DNA of 19,752 bases from Elusimicrobiota bacterium (GTDB taxonomy: Bacteria > Elusimicrobiota > Elusimicrobia > UBA1565 > JACRDR01): positions 1 through 19,752 of the forward strand of contig JBGFSC010000044.1 in the NCBI GenBank assembly GCA_041694815.1, in the 5' to 3' direction. Shown one piece after another: positions 2,177-17,518 of this stretch (positions are counted from its first letter, which is position 1; every line of letters begins with the position of its first letter). The notes below the pieces were generated by a model. That model searched no databases and had not been told where the DNA came from. It saw only the letters and a list, made by a program, of their open reading frames with translations. The position numbers and the translations under genes were made by a program.

Positions 2177-3451
2177 ATGAACGCATTCAGTCTTGTCCTG
2201 TCGTTTTACTGCGCTTTTTTCCCGCCGGCGTCGGGCGCCGCCGAGCCTACTCTTTCCTTGGCCGCCGTGCTCGAGGAGGCCCGCCGGAGCAATCCCGAAA
2301 TCCAGGCCGCACGGAGCCAATGGCTGGGGGCCCGGGCGGCCGTGCTGCCGGCCAAAACCTGGGAGCCTCCCCAGATCGGATACGAATCCTGGGGGTTCAC
2401 GGGCACGAGGGTCACGTCCGCGCCGGAGAAATGGTACGACATCAGCCAGGAAATCCCATTCCCAGGCAAACTGCATTATAAAGGAAAGGCTGCCGATCAC
2501 GAGTCGCGCCGGCTTGAGGAACTCTACCGCGCCACGGAGCTCGACGTGCTAGCCAAGGTCCGCGCGGCCTACTACCAGCTGATGCTCTCGCAGAGGGCGG
2601 CGCGTCTCATCCAGGAAAACGTGGAGGTCATGCGCCGCTTCGCCAAGACGGCGGAGGCCAAGTATTCGGTGGGCAAGGCCTCCCAGGCCGACGCCCTGAG
2701 GGCCCAGGTCGAGCTCGGCAAGATGCTGAGCATGCTCGTCGCGGTGCAGCAGGAGGGAGAGAGCGACCGGGCCCTACTCAATGCCCTGCTCGACAGGGAG
2801 GCCGAGTCACCGCTGGAAACGGCGGAGGAGCCTCCCGTCGCTCCGCTCGCCTACGCCTACAAGGAGCTCGAGGAGATCGCCCTCGCCGAGCGCCCGGAGG
2901 TGCACGCGGCCTCGCATCATGTCTCCCATATGCGGGCGAACCTTGCCGCCTCCCGCAGCGAGGCCCTCCCCGACTTTTCCCTCCAGTACACACGCAGGAC
3001 CCGGCAGGGCCTGCCCGCCGACTCCGTGGGAGTGGTCAAGATGAGCCTGCCCTTCCTCTACTTCTGGAGGCAGGGGGCGCGAGTCAAATCCGCGCGCTTC
3101 GAGCTCGAGCACGCCCGCGCGATGCGCCGCCAAGCCCAGGCCCTCACCCGGGCCGAGATCAAACGGTATTACTCCAAGGTCGAGGCCGGCCGCCGGCTCA
3201 TCGAGCTATACAAGACCAGCGTGCTGCCGCAATCCGAGCAGGCGGTCAAGGTGTCTGAATCCGCCTACCAGACCGACCGGATCGACTTTCTAAATTTGCT
3301 CGACAGCCAGCGCGCCCTGCTCGATTTCCGGCTTGAATACTACCAGACCGTAGCCCGATACGGGGAGAACCTGGCGGAACTTGAGAGGCGCGTGGGCCGG
3401 GATCTTTCCGGGCCGAAGAGGCCTATTCGGACGGAGGAACAACATGATTAA
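2177..3451 (+). CDS. TolC-family outer membrane efflux protein (CusC/CzcC-like)
   Basis: SD GAGGAGG, signal peptide, OEP repeats (ARRSNPEIQAAR, RPEVHAA, DFLNLLDSQR). First gene of a tripartite RND operon. Confidence 0.9.
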   Translation: MNAFSLVLSFYCAFFPPASGAAEPTLSLAAVLEEARRSNPEIQAARSQWLGARAAVLPAKTWEPPQIGYESWGFTGTRVTSAPEKWYDISQEIPFPGKLHYKGKAADHESRRLEELYRATELDVLAKVRAAYYQLMLSQRAARLIQENVEVMRRFAKTAEAKYSVGKASQADALRAQVELGKMLSMLVAVQQEGESDRALLNALLDREAESPLETAEEPPVAPLAYAYKELEEIALAERPEVHAASHHVSHMRANLAASRSEALPDFSLQYTRRTRQGLPADSVGVVKMSLPFLYFWRQGARVKSARFELEHARAMRRQAQALTRAEIKRYYSKVEAGRRLIELYKTSVLPQSEQAVKVSESAYQTDRIDFLNLLDSQRALLDFRLEYYQTVARYGENLAELERRVGRDLSGPKRPIRTEEQHD

Positions 3452-4583
3452 CCGCCGCTGGATCGTCTTTGCCTTGGGGTTGATCGCCGGTCTCGCCGCG
3501 GCGCTCGTGCTCGCCAGGCTCGGTAGCCATCGCCATGACGCCGAAACACAGGTTCCTCGGGCCGCCAGCAAGGAAACTCTCTATTTCTGCCCGATGCACC
3601 CCTCCGTCGTCTCCAGCAAGCCCGAGAATTGCCCGGTCTGCGGCATGCGCCTGCAAAGGATGGACGATGCGCCGGAGGAAGGGGGCGGGCGCGAGGCCGA
3701 AGAGAAGGCGGAAATGCCGGTCTCCGGGCACGCCGTCGTCAAGCTGCCGAAGTGGCGGCGGCAGCTCATCGGCGTCACGACCACCCAGGCCGCCCGCCGG
3801 CCGCTTAAGGCTTCGATCCGCACCGTAGGCAAGATCGCCTACGACCCCGAACTTTATACGGCGCAGACGGAATACCGGGAAGCGTTGATTTCCCGGGAGA
3901 AGGTCAAGGACAGCCCTTGGCCGGACGTGCACGAGCGCGCCAACGCCTTGGTCAACGCCTCCAGGCTCAAGCTTAAGCTGATGGGGTTGAGCGAGGATCA
4001 GATCAACGCCCTCGAGACTGAAAAGTCCTCGACCAATCTCATCATCGGGCAGGCGGGCGGGACCCTGTGGGTCTATGCCGATATCTACGAGTACGACCTG
4101 GGCCTGGTGGCGGCCGGCCAGCGCGTGGAGGCGACGCTGCCAGCCTTCCCGGGACGCGCGTTCCATGGCGTGATCAAGGCTATCGACCCCGTCCTCAACC
4201 CGAATACCCGGACGGTGCGCGTACGGGCGGAGATCCCGAACGAAAAGGGGCTGCTCAAGCCAGAGATGTTCGTAAATGTGTTGATCCGGGTCCCGCTCGG
4301 GCGTGAACTCAGCGTTCCCGTAGACGCCGTCTTTGATACGGGGCAGCGCCAGCTGGTGTTCGTCGAAGTCGCCGACGGAGAGTTCGAGCCGCGCGAGGTG
4401 AAGGTCGGCCGAACGGCCGAGGGGCACACCGAGGTCCTTTCCGGCCTTAAGGACGGGGAGAAGGTCGTGACCCAGGCGAACTTCCTCATGGATTCCGAGT
4501 CCAAGCTGCGGGCGACCGGGGCCGCCGCCAGCCAGGCCGGGCACAAAGGGATGAGCGGCACGGCGGAAAGGGAGAAGCCGTGA
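3444..4583 (+). CDS. cusB: RND periplasmic adaptor with heavy-metal-binding domain (CusB-like)
   Basis: SD GGAGG before ATG 3444. N-terminal TM, YFCPMHP..CPVCGMRL metal-binding domain, MFP motifs TRTVRVR, LKPEMF, GLKDGEKVV. Confidence 0.9.
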   Translation: MINRRWIVFALGLIAGLAAALVLARLGSHRHDAETQVPRAASKETLYFCPMHPSVVSSKPENCPVCGMRLQRMDDAPEEGGGREAEEKAEMPVSGHAVVKLPKWRRQLIGVTTTQAARRPLKASIRTVGKIAYDPELYTAQTEYREALISREKVKDSPWPDVHERANALVNASRLKLKLMGLSEDQINALETEKSSTNLIIGQAGGTLWVYADIYEYDLGLVAAGQRVEATLPAFPGRAFHGVIKAIDPVLNPNTRTVRVRAEIPNEKGLLKPEMFVNVLIRVPLGRELSVPVDAVFDTGQRQLVFVEVADGEFEPREVKVGRTAEGHTEVLSGLKDGEKVVTQANFLMDSESKLRATGAAASQAGHKGMSGTAEREKP

Positions 4584-7500
4584 TCGAGAAGATCATCGAG
4601 TTTTCCGCCCGCCATAAGTTCCTGGTCTTGCTCCTGAGCTTGGTCGCGGTATCGGCCGCCTTATGGACCGCCAAGAACGTTCCCCTCGACGCCATCCCCG
4701 ACCTCTCCGATACGCAGGTCATCATCTATTCCAAGTGGGACCGCAGCCCCGACATCATCGAGGATCAGGTCACGTACCCGATCGTCACGGCCATGCTGGG
4801 GGCTCCCGGCATCAAGCTCATCCGCGGCTTCTCGGACTTCGGCTATTCCTACGTCTACGTGATCTTCAAAGACGGCACGGATATCTATTGGGCGCGCAGC
4901 CGCACGCTCGAGTACTTAAGCAAGATACAGGGGCAGCTTCCCGAAGGCGTCAAGACCGAGATGGGCCCCGACGCGACGAGCGTCGGCTGGGTCTACCAGT
5001 ACGCGGTCACCGACGAATCGGGCCGCCACAACCTGGCCCAATTGCGCAGCCTGCAGGATTGGTACTTGCGTTATCAGCTCCAAGCCGTGCCCGGCGTCGC
5101 CGAGGTGGCATCGGTGGGCGGCTTCGTCAAGCAGTACCAGGTGAACGTCGATCCCAACCTCCTGCGCGCCTATAACGTGCCTTTAAGCCGGGTGACCCAA
5201 GCCGTGCGCGAGGGCAACCAAGAGACCGGCGGCCGTGTGTTGGAGTTCGCCAACGCCGAGTACATGGTGCGCGGCCGGGGCTACGCCAAATCCGTGGAGG
5301 ACTTCGAGAAAATCGTCGTGGGCGTGGACCACAAGTCAGGCACGCCGATCCTCCTCAAGCATGTCGCCAAGGTACAGCTCGGCCCCGACATGCGCCGCGG
5401 CGTCGCCGACCTTAACGGACAAGGCGACGTGGTCGGCGGCGTCGTCATCATGCGGCAGGGCGAGAATGCCCTTAACGTCATCAAGGCCGTCAAGGCCAAG
5501 CTGGCGGAGATCGCGCCCAGTATCCCGGAGGGCGTCAAGATCGTCCCCGTCTACGACCGCTCCGAGCTCATCACACGCGCGATCGAGACCCTGCAACGCA
5601 CCCTCAAAGAGGAAATCATCATCGTCAGCATCGTCATCCTGGTCTTCCTGTGGCATATCCCCTCGGCCCTGGTCCCGATACTGACGATTCCCGTCTCGGT
5701 GCTCTTGGCCTTCATCCCCTTCTATTTCCTCGGCTTTACGGCGAACATCATGTCGCTGGCCGGCATCGCCATCTCGATCGGCGTGCTGGTGGACGGGGCC
5801 ATCATCGAGGTGGAAAACGCCTACAAAAAGCTCCAACTCTGGGACGAGCAGGGGCGCAAGGACGATTTCCACAAGGTCCGGCTGTCGGCGCTCAAGGAAG
5901 TCGGCCCTTCCGTCTTTTTCTCGCTGCTCGTCGTCGCGGTCTCCTTCATGCCGGTGTTTACCCTCATCGACCAGGAAGGCCGGCTGTTTAAGCCTCTCGC
6001 CTACTCGAAGACTCTGGCCCTGGCCATCGCCTCCGTGCTGGCCATCACGCTGGACCCGGCCATGCGCATGCTTTTCACCCGCATGGACTATGTCCATTTC
6101 AAGCCCGCCTGGGCGTCTTGGCTAGTCAACACCGTCGCCGTCGGGAAGTACTACCCGGAGGAGCGGCACCCGATCAGCCGGGCGCTTTTTGAGGCCTACG
6201 AACCGGCGTGCCGATGGGCCCTGGAGCATCGAAAGACGGTACTCGCCGCCGCCCTCGCGCTCATGGCGTCCACCGTGCCGGTCTACCTGCGCCTGGGATC
6301 GGAATTCATGCCCACGCTCAACGAAGGCAGCATCCTGTACATGCCAACGACGCTGCCCGGAATGTCGGTGAGCGAGGCTCAGCGCATCCTCCAGATCCAG
6401 GACAAGGTCCTCAAGGAGTTCCCCGAGGTGGAAAGCGTTTTCGGCAAAGCCGGGCGAGCTGAGACTTCCACGGACCCGGCCCCTTTTTCGATGATCGAGA
6501 CCACCATCATACTCAAACCCCCCTCCCAGTGGCCCAGGAAGAAATCCATGGAGCAACTCATCGAGGAGATGGACGCCAAGCTCCGTTTCCCCGGCATCCC
6601 GAACATCTGGACCATGCCGATCAAAAATCGCATCGACATGCTCTCCACCGGCGTGCGCACGCCGATCGGCATCAAGGTGTTCGGCCCCGACATCAAGCGG
6701 ATCGAAGAGATCGGCTCTCGGATCGAGCAAGCGATCCGGGGCGTGCGGGGCACCAGGAACGTATACGCGGAACGGGTCGCCGGCGGCTATTTCGTCGACT
6801 TCGCGCTCAAGCGCGAGGGGCTCGCGCGCTACGGCCTGAGCATCCAGGACGCCCAGAGTATCGTCTCCTCGGCGATCGGCGGGGAGAACGTCACGACGAC
6901 CGTGGAGGGGCGCGAGCGCTATCCCGTGAACGTCCGCTATGCCCGCGAGTTCCGAGACAATCTCGAGGCGCTCAAGCGCGTCATCGTCCCCACGGCCGCG
7001 GGCTCGCACATACCGCTCGCCGATCTCGCCGACATTAAGATAGTGGAAGGGCCCGCGATGGTGCGCAATGAGAACGGGCAGCTCGTGGGCTATGTCTACG
7101 TCGACGTCGGGGGTCGCGACGTCGGCAGCTACGTCGAGGAGGCCAAAAGGTTGATCGACGGGAAGATCAAGCTTCCCCCCGGCTATACCCTCGCCTGGAG
7201 CGGCCAATACGAGAACATGGCGCGGGTCCAAGATAGGCTCAAGCTCGTCATCCCCCTGACGATCTTCCTGATCGTGGCCCTGCTCTACATGAACACCGGC
7301 TCGCTCGTAAAGACGGGCATCGTCATGCTGGCCGTGCCGTTCTCGCTCATCGGAGCCGTTTGGCTGCTCTACGCGCTCGGCTACAACCTCTCCATCGCGG
7401 TCTGGGTGGGGATGATCGCCTTGATGGGCCTCGACGCCGAGACCGGGATCTTCATGCTGTTATTCTTGGACCTCGCCTACGAGGAGCGCGTCAAGGCCGG

Positions 7501-7816
7501 CAGGATGAGGACCTATCAGGACTTAGAGGAGGCCATCCTGCACGGCGCGGTCCGGCGCATACGCCCGAAGATGATGACGGTGACGGCGATGTTCATGGGC
7601 CTTTTGCCGGCCATGTGGTCTACCGGCGCGGGAGCCGACGTCATGAAGCGGATCGCGGCTCCCATGGTGGGCGGGATCTTTACGTCCTTCTTGCTCGAGC
7701 TGCTGGTTTATCCCGTGCTCTATTCGATTTGGAAGTGGCGCTTCGAGATGAAGGGCGGGACGGTCGTGCCTCAGCACCATGAGGTCGTCCGTGCGGGGCG
7801 CGCGGTCAAAGATTGA
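4580..7816 (+). CDS. cusA: CusA/CzcA-family heavy-metal RND permease, Cu(I)/Ag(I) type
   Basis: 1078 aa with LDAIPDLSDTQVII and GPDATSVGWVYQY. Met residues in ILYMPTT, PAPFSMIET and NRIDMLSTG correspond to the CusA Cu-binding Met triad. GTG start overlaps the cusB stop. Confidence 0.95.
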   Translation: MIEKIIEFSARHKFLVLLLSLVAVSAALWTAKNVPLDAIPDLSDTQVIIYSKWDRSPDIIEDQVTYPIVTAMLGAPGIKLIRGFSDFGYSYVYVIFKDGTDIYWARSRTLEYLSKIQGQLPEGVKTEMGPDATSVGWVYQYAVTDESGRHNLAQLRSLQDWYLRYQLQAVPGVAEVASVGGFVKQYQVNVDPNLLRAYNVPLSRVTQAVREGNQETGGRVLEFANAEYMVRGRGYAKSVEDFEKIVVGVDHKSGTPILLKHVAKVQLGPDMRRGVADLNGQGDVVGGVVIMRQGENALNVIKAVKAKLAEIAPSIPEGVKIVPVYDRSELITRAIETLQRTLKEEIIIVSIVILVFLWHIPSALVPILTIPVSVLLAFIPFYFLGFTANIMSLAGIAISIGVLVDGAIIEVENAYKKLQLWDEQGRKDDFHKVRLSALKEVGPSVFFSLLVVAVSFMPVFTLIDQEGRLFKPLAYSKTLALAIASVLAITLDPAMRMLFTRMDYVHFKPAWASWLVNTVAVGKYYPEERHPISRALFEAYEPACRWALEHRKTVLAAALALMASTVPVYLRLGSEFMPTLNEGSILYMPTTLPGMSVSEAQRILQIQDKVLKEFPEVESVFGKAGRAETSTDPAPFSMIETTIILKPPSQWPRKKSMEQLIEEMDAKLRFPGIPNIWTMPIKNRIDMLSTGVRTPIGIKVFGPDIKRIEEIGSRIEQAIRGVRGTRNVYAERVAGGYFVDFALKREGLARYGLSIQDAQSIVSSAIGGENVTTTVEGRERYPVNVRYAREFRDNLEALKRVIVPTAAGSHIPLADLADIKIVEGPAMVRNENGQLVGYVYVDVGGRDVGSYVEEAKRLIDGKIKLPPGYTLAWSGQYENMARVQDRLKLVIPLTIFLIVALLYMNTGSLVKTGIVMLAVPFSLIGAVWLLYALGYNLSIAVWVGMIALMGLDAETGIFMLLFLDLAYEERVKAGRMRTYQDLEEAILHGAVRRIRPKMMTVTAMFMGLLPAMWSTGAGADVMKRIAAPMVGGIFTSFLLELLVYPVLYSIWKWRFEMKGGTVVPQHHEVVRAGRAVKD

Positions 7817-11626: not shown

Positions 11627-11965
11627 TTAGGCCGTCGCGCCTTCCATCACCTGTCGGCAGCACGAGGCGCACTGGCGGCAGGCTTGGGCGCATTGCTTCA
11701 TCTCCGGCTCCGAGAAAGACTCGCACAACCTGGAGCACTCCTGGCAGACCTGGGCGCAGGCGTCGCAGACCGGGCCGCAGTGTCCGGAACCGTGGATGCA
11801 GGAATTCGCGCAAGCCTGGCATAGCTGCGCGCACTCGATCATCTTGAGCAGCAAGGACGACTCCGCGTACTTGCCGCCCTTTTGAAGGCAGAACTTCACC
11901 GCCCGCATGCACGCCTTGTAACACTCCATACATGAATCGCTACATTGAGCCAGGGTCATGTCCAT
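11627..11965 (-). CDS. Four-helix-bundle copper storage protein (Csp3/DUF326-like)
   Basis: 112 aa of repeated CxxxCxxCxxxC motifs, no signal peptide, SD AAGGAGG. Confidence 0.88.
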   Translation of the reverse strand: MDMTLAQCSDSCMECYKACMRAVKFCLQKGGKYAESSLLLKMIECAQLCQACANSCIHGSGHCGPVCDACAQVCQECSRLCESFSEPEMKQCAQACRQCASCCRQVMEGATA

Positions 11966-12000: not shown

Positions 12001-12066
12001 ATTGTAGCCGCGCGACGACGGCTTTCCCATGGAGAACCCGTAACTTCCAAGCGACGCCTTCGCGAC
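12001..12066 (-). promoter_or_regulatory. Promoter of the csp gene with an 11-bp-phased direct repeat array
   Basis: Minus strand GTCGC-N6-GTCGC-N6-GTTAC-N6-TCCAT-N22-TACAAT. Confidence 0.65.
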
Positions 12067-12083
12067 GCCCGCCATACGCTCCC

Positions 12084-12138
12084 GACAACAAAGCTTTACC
12101 TCCCCGCTATGGAGGACGGCGGCGGAATAGGCCAAAAT
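12084..12138 (+). promoter_or_regulatory. Promoter of the 47-aa ORF, same architecture
   Basis: GACAA-N6-TTTAC-N6-GCTAT-N22-CAAAAT. Confidence 0.5.
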
Positions 12139-12174
12139 GCCTCGCCGCAAATAACTAACCAGGAGGGCATCCGG

Positions 12175-12318
12175 ATGTTTCGCGAGAAGAAGGATCGGAT
12201 AAAGTGGGAAACGCGACGGGCCAAGATGCCTCGCCGCCTTCAGGAAAAAGTCTCCAGCCGCCAGATCAAGCTGCAGCGCCTGCTCGAAGAGGAGGAATTC
12301 GCGGAATTGGAGTACTAG
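12175..12318 (+). CDS. Small protein, 47 aa, basic N-terminus and acidic tail
   Basis: SD AGGAGG 8 nt before ATG 12175. MFREKKDRIKWETRRAKMPRRLQEKVSSRQIKLQRLLEEEEFAELEY. A promoter of the shared architecture lies upstream. Confidence 0.6.
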   Translation: MFREKKDRIKWETRRAKMPRRLQEKVSSRQIKLQRLLEEEEFAELEY

Positions 12319-13396
12319 CGGCGACGGCTTTAGCCTCCCGGGGGCGCGTCGCCGCCGCGCCCCCGGCCTGGCCGCCGATGGCCACCGGGCGGCCCTCGCG
12401 GATGGCGCGCTGCAGCGCGCATGCGACCCTGAGATTCGCCACCCCTTCCACGCCCGATGGCTCCGGTGGGTGGTTTTGCAGGATGCAGTCCGAAAAATAG
12501 CGCAGCTCCCTTTCAAAAATTCCGCGACGCTCGAAACTACGCTCCTTGCGCTTTCCTTGGAGCACGACGGCGTGCCGCTGCTCCCCCACGTGCTCGAAGG
12601 CCGGTTCGCAGCGCAGCTCTCCCTTGCTGCCGAAAATATGGAAAAGAGACAACTCCGAGGCGCCCGAGCCAAGCATGAAGCTCGCCACGCGTCCGCCGTC
12701 GAAGCGCAGCAGGGCCGCGGTAAATTCCACTTTTCCGCGGGAGTGTTCGCCGGGCCCCTGGACCGAATAGGCGAACGCCTCCTCCGGTTCGCAGCCGAAG
12801 AGGCGTCTAGCCGTCTCGATGCAATGTATCCCGGATACGAGCAGGGCTCCGCCCGGTTCGACAAGGAAGGCCTCCGATAAGGCGGCGGGGGCCGACGCGA
12901 CTACGGCGTGGAAGGAGCGTAGCTCCCCTAGCTTGCCAGCGCGCGCGAATTCCAGCGCCTTGGCATGGGACTCGTCGAAACGCAGGCCGTCGGAGGCCAT
13001 GAGCCGGGCTTGGCGCCTGCCGGCCGCCCGAAGTACCGCCTCTGCCTCCTCCGGTGTGCGGCCCATCGGCTGGCGGCAGAAAACGTGGATGCCGGCCTCC
13101 GCCGCGCGCAGCGCGAAAGGGTGTCGCAGCGGGCTGGGCACCGTCAGGCAGACCGCGTCGATCTCGCCGCTCTTGAGGCAGGAGGCATAATCCTCATAAG
13201 TATAGGCGAGGCCGACCCGATACTTCTTACCCAACTTCTTGTGCTTAACCGGATCATCCGAAACGAAGGCCGCCAACTCGGAATTATCGGAGCAGCGCTC
13301 GAAAGCCGGCAGAACCTCCGCTTGGGCCGCGTGCCCTAATCCAACGACGGCGTAACGCACCTTCTGGCCGGGCTTCGCCTCGCGATCTTCGCTCAT
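12266..13396 (-). CDS. Gfo/Idh/MocA-family oxidoreductase-like protein with degenerate motifs
   Basis: VRYAVVGLGHAAQAEVLPAF Rossmann start and IDAVCLTVPSPLRH. Canonical EKP appears as RQP. Start chosen by SD AGGAG spacing. Confidence 0.82.
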   Translation of the reverse strand: MSEDREAKPGQKVRYAVVGLGHAAQAEVLPAFERCSDNSELAAFVSDDPVKHKKLGKKYRVGLAYTYEDYASCLKSGEIDAVCLTVPSPLRHPFALRAAEAGIHVFCRQPMGRTPEEAEAVLRAAGRRQARLMASDGLRFDESHAKALEFARAGKLGELRSFHAVVASAPAALSEAFLVEPGGALLVSGIHCIETARRLFGCEPEEAFAYSVQGPGEHSRGKVEFTAALLRFDGGRVASFMLGSGASELSLFHIFGSKGELRCEPAFEHVGEQRHAVVLQGKRKERSFERRGIFERELRYFSDCILQNHPPEPSGVEGVANLRVACALQRAIREGRPVAIGGQAGGAAATRPREAKAVAASTPIPRIPPLRAGAAA

Positions 13397-13408
13397 GAGC
13401 GTCATCTC

Positions 13409-13606
13409 CTATCGCGCCTTCGGACGCCGCCGGGCCCGGACATCGACGGCCTGGTTGGCGCAGGAGCAGCCCTTGTCCTCGGCGCAGCCGACGCAACAGT
13501 ATTTCTCCCCTTCCTTCTCGAAGGCCTCCGAGGCGCGCGGGATTGCGCTGCCGCATTTGGGACAGGACAGGCCGGCCCCCTTTCCACCATTTTTTTGAAT
13601 GGGCAT
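13409..13606 (-). CDS. Metallothionein-like small Cys-rich protein
   Basis: CPKC..AFEKEGEKYCCVGCAEDKGCSC resembles the YCxxxC core of bacterial metallothioneins and TRASH domains. SD AAGGAGG. Confidence 0.7.
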   Translation of the reverse strand: MPIQKNGGKGAGLSCPKCGSAIPRASEAFEKEGEKYCCVGCAEDKGCSCANQAVDVRARRRPKAR

Positions 13607-13652
13607 AGCTGCCTCCTTAAATGATCGCCCCGCCGCTTGGGACGGAGCCGCT

Positions 13653-14030
13653 TTAATCCGGGCGCGGTCCGAACCCGTTGTGATTGGGCATGGTGGGATC
13701 CCGTTCCTCGAATCTCACCTGGAACTGCCTCGGGGGGGTCGACACCCACTTGCCCTCGGGGGTGATTCCCCGCGCAACCGCCTGATGATCGCCAGGGGCG
13801 TAGCCCGCCCAATCGTACCACCAGTAGCCGACCGCTTGCCGGCAGGGTTCCCAAGGCCCCTCGTCGACGGATATCTCCACTCCCTTAAGTTGAGCCTGGG
13901 CCCCCAAACGGAAAGTGTATTCCTTCGATAGGATAACGTCGCGCCGCTGCGGGTAGTCGAAGTCGAGCCGGCGCGCCACCTTTTCCGATTTTTCCGTCGA
14001 CTTCGCCCTTCTGCGGCCCTTCGACTCCAT
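13653..14030 (-). CDS. Hypothetical protein with an Ig-like beta-sandwich domain
   Basis: VEISVDEGPWEPC..GYWWYDW..GDHQAVARG resembles bacterial Ig-like/Mo-co dimerisation-type folds. Basic N-terminal tail, G-rich SD. Confidence 0.7.
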   Translation of the reverse strand: MESKGRRRAKSTEKSEKVARRLDFDYPQRRDVILSKEYTFRLGAQAQLKGVEISVDEGPWEPCRQAVGYWWYDWAGYAPGDHQAVARGITPEGKWVSTPPRQFQVRFEERDPTMPNHNGFGPRPD

Positions 14031-14055
14031 ACGTTTTCCCCCCAATTCGCCAAGC

Positions 14056-14121
14056 ATTATAGACGCGCGCAAGAGAGCCGCCCATAGACGAGGCGTAATT
14101 TATATTTCTCCCGCGCTTGAC
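14056..14121 (-). promoter_or_regulatory. Promoter of the Ig-like/MT/Gfo operon with phased repeats
   Basis: Minus strand GTCAA-N17-ATTAC-N6-TCTAT-N22-TATAAT. Confidence 0.62.
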
Positions 14122-14127
14122 GTAGGA

Positions 14128-14574
14128 TTACTGCAGGCAGCGCGGCGGCAGGCGTACGATGTTGAACCAGAACTCCTCGATCGCGTTCATGGTGCGCACG
14201 AACTGCTCGTAGCTCCGCGGCTTATTAACGTAACAGTTGCCCCCAGAGCCGTAGGTCATGAGCACGTCCGAGTCCTCCAGGGAGGAGGTCATGATCACCA
14301 CCACGATCTGTTTTAGGAAAGGGTCGCTCTTGATCTCGCGCAGCAGCTCGTGGCCGTTTTTGCCGGGAAGGTGCAGGTCCATGAGGATAAGGTCGGGACG
14401 CGCCGCTCCCACGTAGCGGCCTTCGCGCCGCAGATAGGCCATCGCCTCGGCGGCGCTCGAAACGACGCTGCAGCGGACCGACTCGCAGCGTTGGCGGAAT
14501 CCCTCGGCCATCAGCTCCACGTGCTCGGGATCGTCTTCGACCAACAGGACCTCGTGCCGGATCATCTCGCGCAT
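14128..14574 (-). CDS. Single-domain response regulator (Rcp1-like receiver)
   Basis: VLLVEDD, RPDLILMDLHLPGKNG, IMTSS..DV..TY..GGNCYVNKP, IEEFWFNIVRLP. SD GGAGG before ATG 14574. Confidence 0.9.
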   Translation of the reverse strand: MREMIRHEVLLVEDDPEHVELMAEGFRQRCESVRCSVVSSAAEAMAYLRREGRYVGAARPDLILMDLHLPGKNGHELLREIKSDPFLKQIVVVIMTSSLEDSDVLMTYGSGGNCYVNKPRSYEQFVRTMNAIEEFWFNIVRLPPRCLQ

Positions 14575-14608
14575 ACCCCCTCCAGGCGGCTCTCGCCTAA
14601 CTGCGTCC

Positions 14609-14663
14609 ATTATAGGGAGCGCGGAGGCCCTCCCACATAGAAGGGGTGTCAAAGAATGGTTGA
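14609..14663 (-). promoter_or_regulatory. Promoter of the receiver gene with phased repeats
   Basis: Minus strand TCAAC-N6-TTGAC-N6-TCTAT-N22-TATAAT. Confidence 0.62.
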
Positions 14664-14675
14664 GGGATTTGGTAA

Positions 14676-14720
14676 GCGGCGGCATACGGCTCTCCCCTTA
14701 GGGATACCGTATGCCGCCGC
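14676..14720. repeat. Strong intergenic inverted repeat (terminator or REP-like hairpin)
   Basis: GCGGCGGCATACGG (14676-14689) / CCGTATGCCGCCGC (14707-14720), 14 nt past the regulator stop codon. No clear U tract. Confidence 0.7.
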
Positions 14721-14734
14721 CTTGACGCGGCGCT

Positions 14735-15445
14735 TTACGCCATTTTGATCTGGTAGCCGAACGACGCGACGGTGACGATACGGTCCGCCTCGGCCTTGAG
14801 CTTCTTACGCAGCCGGGCGATATGCTGGTCCACCGTGCGGGTGTCGATGTCGATGGACTTCTTGTAGCCCCAGATATGCTCGAGCAGGTAGTCCCTGGAG
14901 AGCACCTTGCCACGGGCCTTCATGAGCAGCAGCAGGAACTCGAACTCCTTGGGGGTCAGATCGGTGAGCTTGCCGCGCACGCGCACCTCGTGCCGCTCGG
15001 GGTCGACCTCGATGCCTCCGACGGTCGTCACCGCCTTGTCGTCCTGGCCGTTGGCGGCGGCCGCCGAGCGCCGGAAGATGGCCTGCACGCGCGCGACGAG
15101 CTCGCCGACGGAGAAGGGCTTGGTGATGTAATCGTCGGCACCGAGCTTAAGGCCCAGGATCCGGTCCATCTCGCTTTTCTTGGCGGTCAGGAATATGATC
15201 GGGACCTGGGATTCCTGCCGCAGCACCCGGCAGAACTCCAGGCCGTCCATCTTGGGCAGCATGATGTCCAAAACGATGAGGTCCAGTTTGTTCTTGCGGG
15301 CCACGGCGAGGCCGGTCTCGGCGTCCGAGGCGCGGAAGACCTTGAAGCCCTCGTTTTCCAGATTGTATTGGAGCAATCGGACCAAATCCTTTTCGTCCTC
15401 GACGATCAATATTTTTCCTTTGTTACCATTTCCATTCGTTTCCAT
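14735..15445 (-). CDS. OmpR/PhoB-family response regulator (copy 2)
   Basis: ILIVEDE, IVLDIMLPKMDG, FLTAK, DDYITKPFS, LTPKEFE, TRTVDQHIARLRKKL. Confidence 0.95.
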   Translation of the reverse strand: METNGNGNKGKILIVEDEKDLVRLLQYNLENEGFKVFRASDAETGLAVARKNKLDLIVLDIMLPKMDGLEFCRVLRQESQVPIIFLTAKKSEMDRILGLKLGADDYITKPFSVGELVARVQAIFRRSAAAANGQDDKAVTTVGGIEVDPERHEVRVRGKLTDLTPKEFEFLLLLMKARGKVLSRDYLLEHIWGYKKSIDIDTRTVDQHIARLRKKLKAEADRIVTVASFGYQIKMA

Positions 15446-15497
15446 TTGCCCTCCGGCGTTCCTGATGAACTATGACGCGTCAAAAAGCGCGGGGCGC

Positions 15498-15564
15498 ATA
15501 ATACCATCTTGAATTTAAAAACGCCAATGGAGGGGATGTGAAGAATTTGTGACGGCTTGATGAC
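15498..15564 (-). promoter_or_regulatory. Promoter of regulator copy 2 with a Pho-box-like array
   Basis: Minus strand GTCAT-N6-GTCAC-N6-TTCAC-N6-TCCAT-N23-TATTAT; TTGGCG-N18-TATTAT. Confidence 0.75.
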
Positions 15565-15574
15565 GGGAAAGGGG

Positions 15575-16264
15575 TCAATCCATCTTTATCTCGTAGCCGA
15601 AATTAGTGACGGTTACGATGCGCCGCCCCTCGCCGCGGAGCTTCCGCCGCAGGTGCGCGATATGCTGGTCGACGGTGCGCGTGTCGATGTCCATGGATTT
15701 CTCGTAGCCCCAGACGCATTCAAGCAGGTGGTCGCGCGAGAGCACCTTGCCCTTGGCCTCGATGAGCAGCTTGAGGAACTCGAACTCCTTCGGGGTCAGG
15801 CCGACCGGCTTTCCCTTAACCTTGACCTCGTGCCGCTCGAAATCGACCTCCAGGTCCCCGATCTTCTGCGGGGCGCCGTTCTCCTCGACCAAGTCGGGGC
15901 GCACGCGGCGCAGGATGGCCTCGATGCGCGCCATGAGCTCGCGCACGGAGAACGGCTTGGTGACGTAATCGTCCCCGCCGAGCTTCAGGCCCAGGATGCG
16001 GTCTACTTCCCCCGTCTTGCCGGTCAGAAACAGCGCCGGGATTTGGAACTCCAGCCGCAGCTGGCGGCAGAACTCCAGGCCATCCATCTTGGGCAGCATC
16101 ACGTCGATGATCGCCATATCGGGCCGCTCTCGGCGCGCCAACTCCAGTCCGCTCTCACCGTCCTGGGCATAGATCGGGCGGTATCCCTCTTTCCGGAAAT
16201 TGGGTTTGATGACTTCCAGCAGGTCTTTTTCGTCGTCCACCACTAAAATCTTGGCTCTTGCCAT
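15575..16264 (-). CDS. OmpR/PhoB-family response regulator (copy 1)
   Basis: ILVVDDE, IIDVMLPKMDG, FLTGK, DDYVTKPFS, LTPKEFE, TRTVDQHIAHLRRKL. Confidence 0.95.
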   Translation of the reverse strand: MARAKILVVDDEKDLLEVIKPNFRKEGYRPIYAQDGESGLELARRERPDMAIIDVMLPKMDGLEFCRQLRLEFQIPALFLTGKTGEVDRILGLKLGGDDYVTKPFSVRELMARIEAILRRVRPDLVEENGAPQKIGDLEVDFERHEVKVKGKPVGLTPKEFEFLKLLIEAKGKVLSRDHLLECVWGYEKSMDIDTRTVDQHIAHLRRKLRGEGRRIVTVTNFGYEIKMD

Positions 16265-16299
16265 AGGCGCCCCCTTTCGTTGAACGGACAACGGTGCCC

Positions 16300-16365
16300 A
16301 TTGTACGCCGCGCGAACGCCGTCCACCATATAGTCGGGGTCAAACTACTCTGACGCCCCCATGAC
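16300..16365 (-). promoter_or_regulatory. Promoter of regulator copy 1 with a Pho-box-like array
   Basis: Minus strand GTCAT-N6-GTCAG-N6-TTGAC-N6-TATAT-N22-TACAAT. Confidence 0.72.
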
Positions 16366-16417: not shown

Positions 16418-17518
16418 ATGCTATCTTCGCGCGACCTCAACGCCCTGCGTTGGCTCAAATCCGAAGAAGCGGATATACTCACCCTCTACCTTGAAATAGA
16501 AGGCAGCTCCTTCGGCGCCGCCTACCGCGCCGCGCTCCAGGCTGGCTTGGCCCGGCAGGCGTCGCTGCGGGAACGCGGCAAAGACCTCGAGAAAATCGAG
16601 CGATTCGTCCAGGAATTCAAGGCCGAGGCTCATCGCGGCCTGGCGGTGTTCGCCTCCGACGCGCAGCGGCTGTGGCGGGCCTACCCCCTCCCCCAGCCCG
16701 TCAAGAGCGCGCTGCTGCTCGGCGCCCGCCCTTACCTGACTCCGCTGTTATCCATCGTAGACCAGTACCAGCGCTACGGCGTCGCGCTCATCGGCCCCGC
16801 GCAGGCGCGTTTTCTGGAGGTATTTCTCGGGGAAATAGAGGAATGCGAGGACGAGGATGCCCCGGTTTTCCGCAGGCCATCGGCACGCGGCGAGGAGTCG
16901 CCTCCCTTAAGCGCATGGGGGAGGCGGGCGGCGCATTTGGCCGGCCTTCGGAATTGGGATCGGCTGATCGTCGGCGCCCCGCGCGAGATGGAAGGCGCCT
17001 TCCTCAGCCACTTGCCCATGAAGCTCAAGGACAACCTGATCCTCGATCCGTTGCTTGTGGCGCAGACCGGCAAGGGGCAAGTGCTCGAAAGGGTTCTCGA
17101 GAACGAGTGCCAAGCCCGCAAGCTCCGCGAAAGCGTGCTCATCCACCGGCTCATCGACTCCTTCAACGGCCGCGGCCCAGCGGTCTTGGGGCTCGAACGG
17201 ACGCTGGAGGCTCTCGGCCGAGGGAGGGTCCGCACGATCTTCGTGCGCGACGGATTCGCCAAATTGGGCCGCATCTGCCCGGACTGCTACTGCCTTTCAT
17301 TGACGGATAAGAAATGCGAGCGCTGCGCCCGCCCGACCGACCCCGCTTTTAATTTGATCGCCGAGATGGCCCAAGAGGCCTTGGATCAAGGCTGCGAGGT
17401 ATTCCGCATCCTTTACGACACTCGGCTCGATTCCTTCGGGCATATCGGCGCCGAGCTCAACGATGGCTCGCGCTCTTGCGCGCCCAAGTCCTCGCCGAAG
17501 CTCCTCTCGAGCGCCTGA
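16418..17518 (+). CDS. Bacterial aeRF1/Pelota-superfamily (baeRF-like) protein with Zn ribbon
   Basis: ILTLYLEI, HRGLAVFA, PYLTPLLSIVDQYQRYGVALI..ARFLEVFLGEIEE, LIVGAP, AVLGLERTLEALGRGRV, CPDC..CERC, GHIGAEL. Start at ATG 16418 is inferred. Confidence 0.85.
   Translation: MLSSRDLNALRWLKSEEADILTLYLEIEGSSFGAAYRAALQAGLARQASLRERGKDLEKIERFVQEFKAEAHRGLAVFASDAQRLWRAYPLPQPVKSALLLGARPYLTPLLSIVDQYQRYGVALIGPAQARFLEVFLGEIEECEDEDAPVFRRPSARGEESPPLSAWGRRAAHLAGLRNWDRLIVGAPREMEGAFLSHLPMKLKDNLILDPLLVAQTGKGQVLERVLENECQARKLRESVLIHRLIDSFNGRGPAVLGLERTLEALGRGRVRTIFVRDGFAKLGRICPDCYCLSLTDKKCERCARPTDPAFNLIAEMAQEALDQGCEVFRILYDTRLDSFGHIGAELNDGSRSCAPKSSPKLLSSA

Follow-up and report, generated by a model that had tools for sequence, protein, structure and literature searches.

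The window analysed here is a 19,752-nt stretch of DNA from an uncultured Elusimicrobiota lineage that makes up the entire contig C13 of genome G000 (2.77 Mb, 63% GC). It encodes two orphan regulators of the OmpR/PhoB family, RR1 (15575-16264, minus strand, 229 aa) and RR2 (14735-15445, minus strand, 236 aa), and raises the question of which genes they control and through which promoters. A first-pass annotation had proposed that six promoters in the window share a Pho-box-like array of half-sites at a fixed distance from the -10 box, and that the twin regulators use it to run a local stress module. Here, we found this array throughout the genome and conclude that RR1 and RR2, as duplicates of PhoB, probably drive a general-stress regulon. 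They would do so through copies of the Pho box, together with a sigma factor reading TATAAT-type boxes and no dedicated stress sigma factor. In the following, G000 is the source genome of the window, G001 and higher numbers are related Elusimicrobia genomes, C denotes contigs of G000, and L denotes loci.

The proposed pattern, NT[G/T/C]AC-N6-NNYAT-N22/23 followed by the -10 box, has exactly six matches in the window, with the sequences as first quoted, at 12044 (-), 12095 (+), 14099 (-), 14652 (-), 15542 (-, with N23) and 16343 (-). Throughout G000, TANNNT follows the box at N22 in 28 cases, compared with 1-9 cases for any other spacing between 10 and 35. The gap of N6 between the half-sites likewise occurs 28 times, against 1-7 for gaps of 2-11. 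A matrix seeded with the six window sites and iterated over G000 (consensus TTTAC-N6-tcYAT-gG-N20/21-TAtAaT) gave 48 hits at a score of at least 20, counted as 49 after rounding in the later alignment and -10 analyses; one of them lies at C29:33114 (score 20.6). Two controls, the reversed genome and a wrong gap, gave 2 hits each. When the matrix made from the six window sites alone was applied to the other 53 contigs (score at least 18), gap 20 accounted for 24 hits and gap 21 for 8, and each of the other 26 gaps gave 0-6. Of the 456 strong -10 promoters of G000, 32 carry the box at gap 20/21, and none carries it at eight other gaps.

The sites belong to some 45 promoters spread over more than 20 contigs, and 47/49 are intergenic in a genome that is 14.5% non-coding by the gene calls made in this analysis. 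From the spacing peaks and the genome-wide counts, we therefore regard the observation as genuine and the element as genome-wide; the six sites in the window stand, and the restriction to this locus does not. The pattern is degenerate, with 648 box-only matches, as would be expected of a chance pattern or of a small local autoregulatory motif. However, such an explanation has practically no probability given the sharp spacing peaks, the intergenic positions and the class-wide conservation described below, and it is refuted by the controls.

The upstream half-sites, which are not part of the matrix, show the proposed phasing. A GTCAY-like 5-mer (at least 4/5 matching) lies exactly 22 nt upstream of the core at 22/49 sites and exactly 11 nt upstream at 10/49, and any other offset reaches at most 4/49. 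In 40 aligned gap-20 sites, numbered so that the -10 hexamer spans -12 to -7, the information content peaks at -50 to -46 and -39 to -33, with further peaks outside the matrix at -71 to -69 and -58. The complete array consists of four half-sites at an 11-bp pitch, GTCAY, GTCAY, TTTAC and NNYAT-gG (at -72, -61, -50 and -39), with an invariant A at -69, -58, -47 and -36, an additional conserved G/G at -34/-33, and an A-rich stretch at -56 to -52. A palindrome of the CRP/FNR type was ruled out, as the half-sites are direct repeats.

The array ends at -35, and between it and the -10 box the region from -32 to -16 is without conservation. The -10 box is near-consensus and TATAAT-type, and a canonical -35 is absent. 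We found a canonical -35 in 53/456 strong -10 promoters and in 0/32 of the box promoters, the latter partly by construction because the positions overlap. A sigma70 consensus scan overlooked five of the six window promoters because they have no -35. An ATG follows 6-8 nt past the -10 (a leaderless layout) at 14/49 sites and 94/456 strong -10 promoters; this layout is common in G000, with a similar share at promoters that have no site.

The half-site geometry bears on which protein reads the element. The proximal pair TTTAC-N6-NNYATGG is asymmetric and unlike GTCAY, and G000 encodes 20 Trans_reg_C proteins, so that another factor might read this pair and only the distal GTCAY pair would be a PhoB site. 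The pair also resembles the a/b boxes of GlnR (PMC10235972) and the TTACA repeats of BfmR (PMC11806355). However, all four half-sites share one 11-bp phase and the invariant A, and they occur together ahead of pst operons across orders. The other OmpR-type proteins of G000 are at most about 41% identical to RR2, and the distribution of sites is explained without them. We regard a separate reader of the proximal pair as highly improbable.

We examined the element across the class. The matrix trained on G000 gave 61 hits on relatives' loci, against 0 in reversed controls (565 kb), and 23 against 0 on 212 kb of such loci. These hits lie ahead of orthologues of the same targets. For example, Ku has a site in 3/5 other Ku-bearing genomes (G008, G024 and G037, in addition to G000), with none scoring at least 15 in G001 and G015. 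Strict matches to the pattern occur in 61 of the 201 genomes scanned, and we fetched 20 stretches from 19 genomes of other orders with matches; a scan allowing two mismatches gave noisy results where genomes were AT-richer.

By definition, Pho boxes consist of direct repeats of 11 nt (PMC4415409), and in the PhoP and GlnR structures activation comes from tandem dimers bound to one to three boxes at -35 (PMC11825685, PMC10235972). The phosphate promoters of nine relatives in the same order carry arrays of the GTCAY-GTCAY-TTTAC-YATGG type; these include G014 and G038, each with one PhoB-like copy among the matches listed. Among the 19 genomes of other orders, 15 have a site ahead of a porin or porin-pst operon, and the distal half-sites there are almost perfect. 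A full array lies at a contig end in G096. The sites of G047, which has an extra PhoB-like copy, are ahead of other genes, including a DUF4331 orthologue. The small, AT-rich genomes G111 and G129 have matches that are not at phosphate genes and are without distal half-sites. We found one PhoB-like copy each in G058, G063, G055 and G082, and in the single contig of G058 three sites surround its pho locus. In G000, the DUF47-PiT-porin-pstSCAB-phoU operon carries a full array (site at C25:46110), which does not support the earlier statement that the module contains no phosphate-uptake gene. Phosphate promoters keep the distal half-sites nearly perfectly, and stress promoters keep them only in part. 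Judged from its sequence and its positions across genomes, the G000 element is the Pho promoter element of the Elusimicrobia class.

RR1 and RR2 are intact REC and Trans_reg_C (winged-helix) proteins that keep the phosphoacceptor Asp, the switch Thr and the Lys. They are 60% identical to each other and 60% (RR1) and 57% (RR2) identical to the pst-linked PhoB of G000; RR2 is 70% identical to a PhoR-linked copy in G013. The DUF47-PiT-porin-pst operon lies directly behind the pst-linked third paralogue (C25:47064-47738) and a PhoR-like kinase, and RR1 and RR2 are not encoded with PhoR or pst genes. None of the three paralogues reaches the TIGR02154 (PhoB) cut-off of 296 (scores 225, 206 and 218), and therefore the PhoB label rests on synteny and the tree. 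A first, quick tree had scattered long-branch outgroups and served for grouping only. In the rooted tree (41 rows, with Omnitrophota and Dehalococcoidia homologues as the outgroup), 17 stress-neighbourhood regulators form one branch (87/87) nested inside the PhoR/pst-linked PhoBs (97/93).

RR1, RR2 and the PhoB copies share T-x-D-Q-H in the recognition helix. In an alignment with GlnR, the guanine-contacting position holds Arg in RR2, PhoB and GlnR, and His in RR1 and its G001 and G005 orthologues. We take this position, Arg194 of GlnR (PMC10235972), to be equivalent to Arg201 of PhoB (PMC3973317).

The genes behind these promoters bear out the general-stress character proposed at first. For repair, we found an operon for an outer-membrane protein, Ku, LigD and a nitroreductase, and for carbohydrate metabolism TreZ with a debranching enzyme, and GlgX. 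A ferritin-like protein with CutA, two hemerythrins, and PfpI as the third gene of an operon that also has DUF2203 are further targets. Others are a CBS protein, DUF1328, YihY/BrkB, DUF2267, DUF6496, DUF4331, an AI-2E transporter, a pyruvate-oxidase-like thiamine-pyrophosphate enzyme, an ACT protein and a glutamine-synthetase-like gene. Exopolysaccharide and envelope targets comprise UDP-glucose dehydrogenase, nucleotidyltransferase-GlmS, a glycosyltransferase cluster and Omp85. Signalling targets comprise three receivers, an RsbR-RsbS-RsbT-RsbX-like operon and the cytosolic kinase C4:13594, and the window contributes the Csp3, Gfo, Cys-rich and Ig-like genes. Apart from ku and ligD, the list is the typical gene set of SigB, RpoS or EcfG. 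Both ku and ligD are under a general-stress sigma factor in Sinorhizobium and probably in most alphaproteobacteria (PMC6379672). With this link and the other markers, the G000 targets correspond to a broad multi-stress gene set.

Genes for a mannose-1-phosphate-guanylyltransferase-like protein and an ACT pair repeatedly occur together with PhoB-family regulators, and they have the site whether the context is phosphate or stress (C12:76793-77803 in G000, and loci of G004, G011, G015, G019, G024, G029 and G038).

We compared the number of strict sites with the number of PhoB paralogues in 41 genomes; because kin are not independent, p-values from this comparison come out too strong. The median was 5 strict sites in the 17 genomes with an extra paralogue not linked to pst, versus 2 in the 24 without. 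Extra paralogues are present in 6/7 genomes with at least 10 strict sites, and Ku (6 genomes) and DUF1328 (4 genomes) are confined to paralogue carriers. In a prospective check, 5/5 new site-rich genomes had 3-4 PhoB-like copies, and five site-free genomes picked from the same order had 1, 1, 1, 1 and 2.

These counts bear on whether the pst-linked PhoB alone could drive all the promoters, as an enlarged phosphate-starvation regulon in which the twins are targets, amplifiers or competitors. The element is a Pho box with the pst operon as a member, the key helix residues are common to PhoB and the twins and the docking helix to the PhoR-type kinases, and phosphate starvation and general stress are linked in other bacteria (PMC4415409). 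However, genomes with PhoB only mostly have 0-5 strict sites, and those examined sit at phosphate genes (e.g. in G058). G004 (88% complete) has 18 sites and three paralogues, and neither pstS nor a pst-linked PhoB was found in it. The distal half-sites, as noted, are only partly kept at stress promoters. We consider control by PhoB alone unlikely.

Several observations weigh against control by the twins. G040 (92% complete, 300 contigs) has 12 strict sites, and only PhoB was found in it, which also speaks for PhoB alone. Six of the 17 paralogue carriers have 0-2 strict sites (G017, G020, G027, G034, G036 and G039), so having a paralogue is no guarantee of a large regulon. The stress branch (87/87) is not starred in the rooted tree, from which 33/74 rows were left out as long, partial or redundant, long-branch stress-type copies among them. 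Some hits are not at stress genes (tRNA-Leu, a cold-shock protein, malate synthase, an AAA ATPase). Given the shared key helix residues and the docking helix common to the PhoR-type kinases, PhoB may act at the same promoters. Finally, an RpoS-like group-2 sigma factor or a second RpoD could be required.

The sigma factors of G000 comprise RpoD (C52), a second RpoD, an RpoS-like group-2 factor and two ECF factors. A scan with TIGR02980 gave no sigma factor of the SigB family over the cut-off; a SigB-type promoter was ruled out on this ground and by the TATAAT-type -10. The group-2 factor (C23:37251-38288, L198) scores below the RpoS cut-off (253 vs 379) and has a long basic C-terminal tail. 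Its distribution speaks against it as the determinant of the regulon: it is found in 39/41 genomes at 67-95% identity, with or without the motif regulon. The second RpoD-like factor (C36:3731-5113, L199, 460 aa) has a non-conserved region of the same type as the primary RpoD, and similar second copies are present in about half of the relatives. All three group 1/2 factors have RpoD-like region 2.4 and 4.2 sequences.

Selectivity could still come from the activator acting together with one of these two additional factors, so that the response would not be independent of a stress sigma factor. Both are present, their RpoD-like regions could read TATAAT-type boxes, and a sigma gene fragment lies near the paralogues in G029. 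However, the group-2 factor occurs irrespective of the regulon, neither sigma gene has a site among the genome-wide matrix hits, -13/-14 are without a strong base preference in the 40 aligned sites, and the same architecture serves pst promoters across the class. A stress sigma factor as the selective partner is quite unlikely in our view.

Candidate inputs to RR1 and RR2 are found among PhoR-type kinases. Of the 26 G000 kinases compared, only PhoR itself and C4:13594 fall in the PhoR clade (99, FastTree); the latter has no membrane sensor and is cytosolic, and its own promoter carries the full array. Kinases beside stress-type regulators in other genomes also group with PhoR (99, FastTree). 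PhoR-clade kinases adjoin such regulators in G004 (GAF-PAS, REC-PAS), G037 (REC-PAS) and L070 (PAS), and CheB-CheR-PAS-HisKA fusion kinases, whose cores group with PhoR, do so in G017 and G034 (L164, L160). The REC-PAS kinase and the regulator come after a multi-HAMP-GAF hybrid kinase in both G004 and G037; this hybrid kinase also adjoins a regulator in G015. It is found in 9/41 genomes, and 7 of the 9 are paralogue carriers.

The G000 copy lies in an operon (C30:40517-47539, L195) encoding a multi-HAMP-GAF-HisKA-3xREC kinase of 1806 aa, a REC-HisKA kinase and a single receiver. The hybrid kinase is 77-86% identical across families over long stretches and has a patchy distribution. G000 also has a stressosome-like RsbR-RsbS-RsbT-RsbX operon (C29:19156-22461; L036:4156-7461) with a site scoring 25.8, which ends in an RsbU_N-HisKA-HATPase kinase (C29:21448) in place of a phosphatase. 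SigB is activated by a GAF-bearing hybrid kinase in Bacillus cereus and by stressosomes in B. subtilis (PMC10950880, PMC7522486). We infer that multi-HAMP, CheB-CheR, GAF-PAS and REC-PAS modules would feed RR1 and RR2.

In the most likely mechanism, the PhoB duplicates would drive the stress regulon as follows. Phosphorylated RR1/RR2 would bind the proximal pair as a head-to-tail dimer, making it the obligatory activating site, and a second dimer on the distal pair would add affinity. The proximal protomer would recruit sigma region 4 and the polymerase at -35. The partial distal pair at stress promoters may keep ordinary phosphorylated PhoB off most stress genes. The input would come from kinases of the PhoR type in which GAF-PAS, REC-PAS or CheB-CheR modules have taken the place of the membrane sensor; in some genomes, the multi-HAMP-GAF hybrid kinase would feed these PhoR-type kinases. 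The sites ahead of both regulators, the kinase and the stressosome operon would provide positive feedback that locks in the general stress state.

A wider reading, less secure than its regulatory core and slightly less likely than not, is that a general stress response of the Elusimicrobia arose from a duplication of PhoBR. The copies would have kept the Pho box, and the membrane phosphate sensor would have been swapped for cytosolic stress inputs: the multi-HAMP hybrid kinase, CheB-CheR, GAF-PAS and possibly the stressosome. The gene set run elsewhere by SigB, RpoS or EcfG would have been taken over with use of the housekeeping sigma factor. The number of half-sites per promoter would mainly separate phosphate from stress output. 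RR2 and RR1, with their Arg/His pair, may form a heterodimer on the unequal proximal sites.

In the window, the RR1 promoter (16300-16365, minus strand) reads GTCAT-N6-GTCAG-N6-TTGAC-N6-TATATGG-N20-TACAAT (score 27.2), and its site is kept upstream of the orthologues in G001 (23.0) and G005 (22.9). The RR2 promoter (15498-15564, minus strand) reads GTCAT-N6-GTCAC-N6-TTCAC-N6-TCCATTG-N21-TATTAT (21.1), with a weaker site (15.0) upstream of the G001 orthologue. Both regulators are thus preceded by sites, as first proposed. The single-domain receiver (14128-14574, minus strand, 148 aa) follows a promoter (14609-14674, minus strand) with TCAAC-N6-TTGAC-N6-TCTATGT-N20-TATAAT (28.4), and its G001 orthologue is also preceded by a site (17.6). 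It is 42% identical to the receiver after the multi-HAMP kinase operon on C30. G001 retains the sites upstream of RR1, RR2, the receiver and the Cys-rich gene.

The next promoter (14056-14121, minus strand; GTCAA-N17-ATTAC-N6-TCTATGG-N20-TATAAT, score 29.7) serves the Ig-like/Cys-rich/Gfo operon. Its first gene (13653-14030, minus strand) encodes an uncharacterised protein of 125 aa; "Ig-like" is the label of the first-pass annotation, and Pfam and NCBIfam scans gave no match. Homologues adjoin stress-type PhoB paralogues in G004, G017, G027, G034 and G036, with a site upstream in 3/5. The Cys-rich protein (13409-13606, minus strand, 65 aa), called a metallothionein at first, is metallothionein-like by its cysteine pattern only and has no family in Pfam or NCBIfam; its homologue in G001 has its own site. 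The third gene (12266-13396, minus strand) encodes an oxidoreductase of the Gfo/Idh/MocA family by domain match. The usual motif of this family is EKP, and the protein has FCRQP at that position; catalysis may be altered in this variant. The 3' end of the gene overlaps a convergent small open reading frame by 53 nt.

This small, basic open reading frame (12175-12318, plus strand, 47 aa) has a strong ribosome-binding site. We found no relative among the relatives' loci examined, and its protein atlas matches were sub-threshold only. Its promoter (12073-12138, plus strand; GACAA-N6-TTTAC-N6-GCTATGG-N20-CAAAAT, score 23.2) is arranged back to back with the csp3 promoter (12001-12066, minus strand; GTCGC-N6-GTCGC-N6-GTTAC-N6-TCCATGG-N20-TACAAT, score 25.8). 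The csp3 gene (11627-11965, minus strand) encodes a cytosolic copper storage protein of the Csp3 family, and the matches to RkCsp3 (6zif, E 7e-15) and Csp3 (5fig) uphold the copper-storage identity.

We rejected the cus-like efflux operon, the adenylate cyclase and the baeRF10 gene of the window as regulon members, as they have no site (best scores at most 4.8). The CusCBA-like heavy-metal efflux operon (2177-7816, plus strand) lies near the Csp3 gene; it has no site and is therefore outside the regulon. The baeRF10 protein (16418-17518, plus strand) is encoded divergently from RR1 and weakly matches the MSMEG_1130 ribosome hibernation factor family. The divergent layout is also present in G001 and G005; the G005 copy has a site (16.2), and the G000 copy has none in register. 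Elsewhere in G000, a short sequence recurs about 110 nt from the ends of contigs C18, C20, C37, C41, C44, C47 and C51, and is probably an insertion-sequence end that broke the assembly.

If our reading is true, the Elusimicrobia offer a case of regulon capture after gene duplication, with the ancestral (phosphate only) and derived (stress) states in one class, and a testable case of paralogous regulators sharing one DNA code. It would give stressosomes and multi-HAMP kinases an output in bacteria that have no SigB, define the Pho promoter of a phylum that has hardly been studied, and assign a probable stress role to many uncharacterised genes. We found no published account of a PhoB-duplicate stress regulon in the literature at title and abstract level, without supplements and with incomplete coverage.

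The closest known architecture is the Pho regulon of E. coli PhoB-PhoR and actinobacterial PhoP, which likewise has 11-nt direct repeats bound by one or two tandem dimers (PMC4415409, PMC11825685, PMC3973317), an array at the -35 region without a canonical -35, pstSCAB as a target, and proteins of the PhoB/PhoR clade. The boxes of PhoP and GlnR overlap or pass -35, whereas the Elusimicrobia array ends at -35, has the proximal pair TTTAC/NNYATgG and shows nothing conserved from -32 to -13. In addition, the G000 twins are orphans with cytosolic putative partner kinases, and stress genes make up most of the targets. Myxococcus xanthus is known to have several PhoR-PhoP pairs and an orphan PhoP4, which a review describes for phosphate control. 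GlnR of actinobacteria is similarly an orphan OmpR-family protein with four half-sites, unequal a/b sites and a similar helix, TRTVD.H..R (PMC10235972). However, its boxes (gTnAc/GaAAC) span -35 and control nitrogen genes, and in the G000 twins the phosphorylatable Asp is retained together with Thr and Lys.

Textbooks present general stress responses as sigma-factor circuits (RpoS, SigB, EcfG). The responses under SigB (with the stressosome or RsbK-RsbY), EcfG/RpoE2 and RpoS (PMC7522486, PMC10950880, PMC6379672) share with G000 non-homologous end joining, trehalose/glycogen genes, ferritin-like proteins, PfpI and small membrane proteins. An RsbRSTX operon is a further common feature, as is a large hybrid kinase with a GAF domain. 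In contrast, G000 has no SigB-family sigma factor over the cut-off and combines a TATAAT-type -10 with an activator array; its stressosome operon ends in an RsbU_N-HisKA kinase, and CHASE3 gave no hit in its multi-HAMP kinase, which contains about ten HAMP repeats.

By analogy of role, BfmR of Acinetobacter baumannii is the nearest functional parallel. BfmRS is an OmpR-family system with direct repeats, a TTAC core and autoregulation, and BfmR was proposed as a general stress coordinator where RpoS is lacking (PMC6181384, PMC11806355). BfmRS differs in its membrane kinase, its 15-bp motif of two TTACA repeats, its mainly envelope targets and the lack of a link to the Pho box. The G000 element has an 11-bp period with four unequal half-sites at a fixed position, and its regulators nest among PhoBs, in a tree that does not include BfmR. 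BfmR is a partial exception to the sigma-factor rule, and a PhoB-duplicate regulon on an unmodified Pho box would, if true, be another solution.

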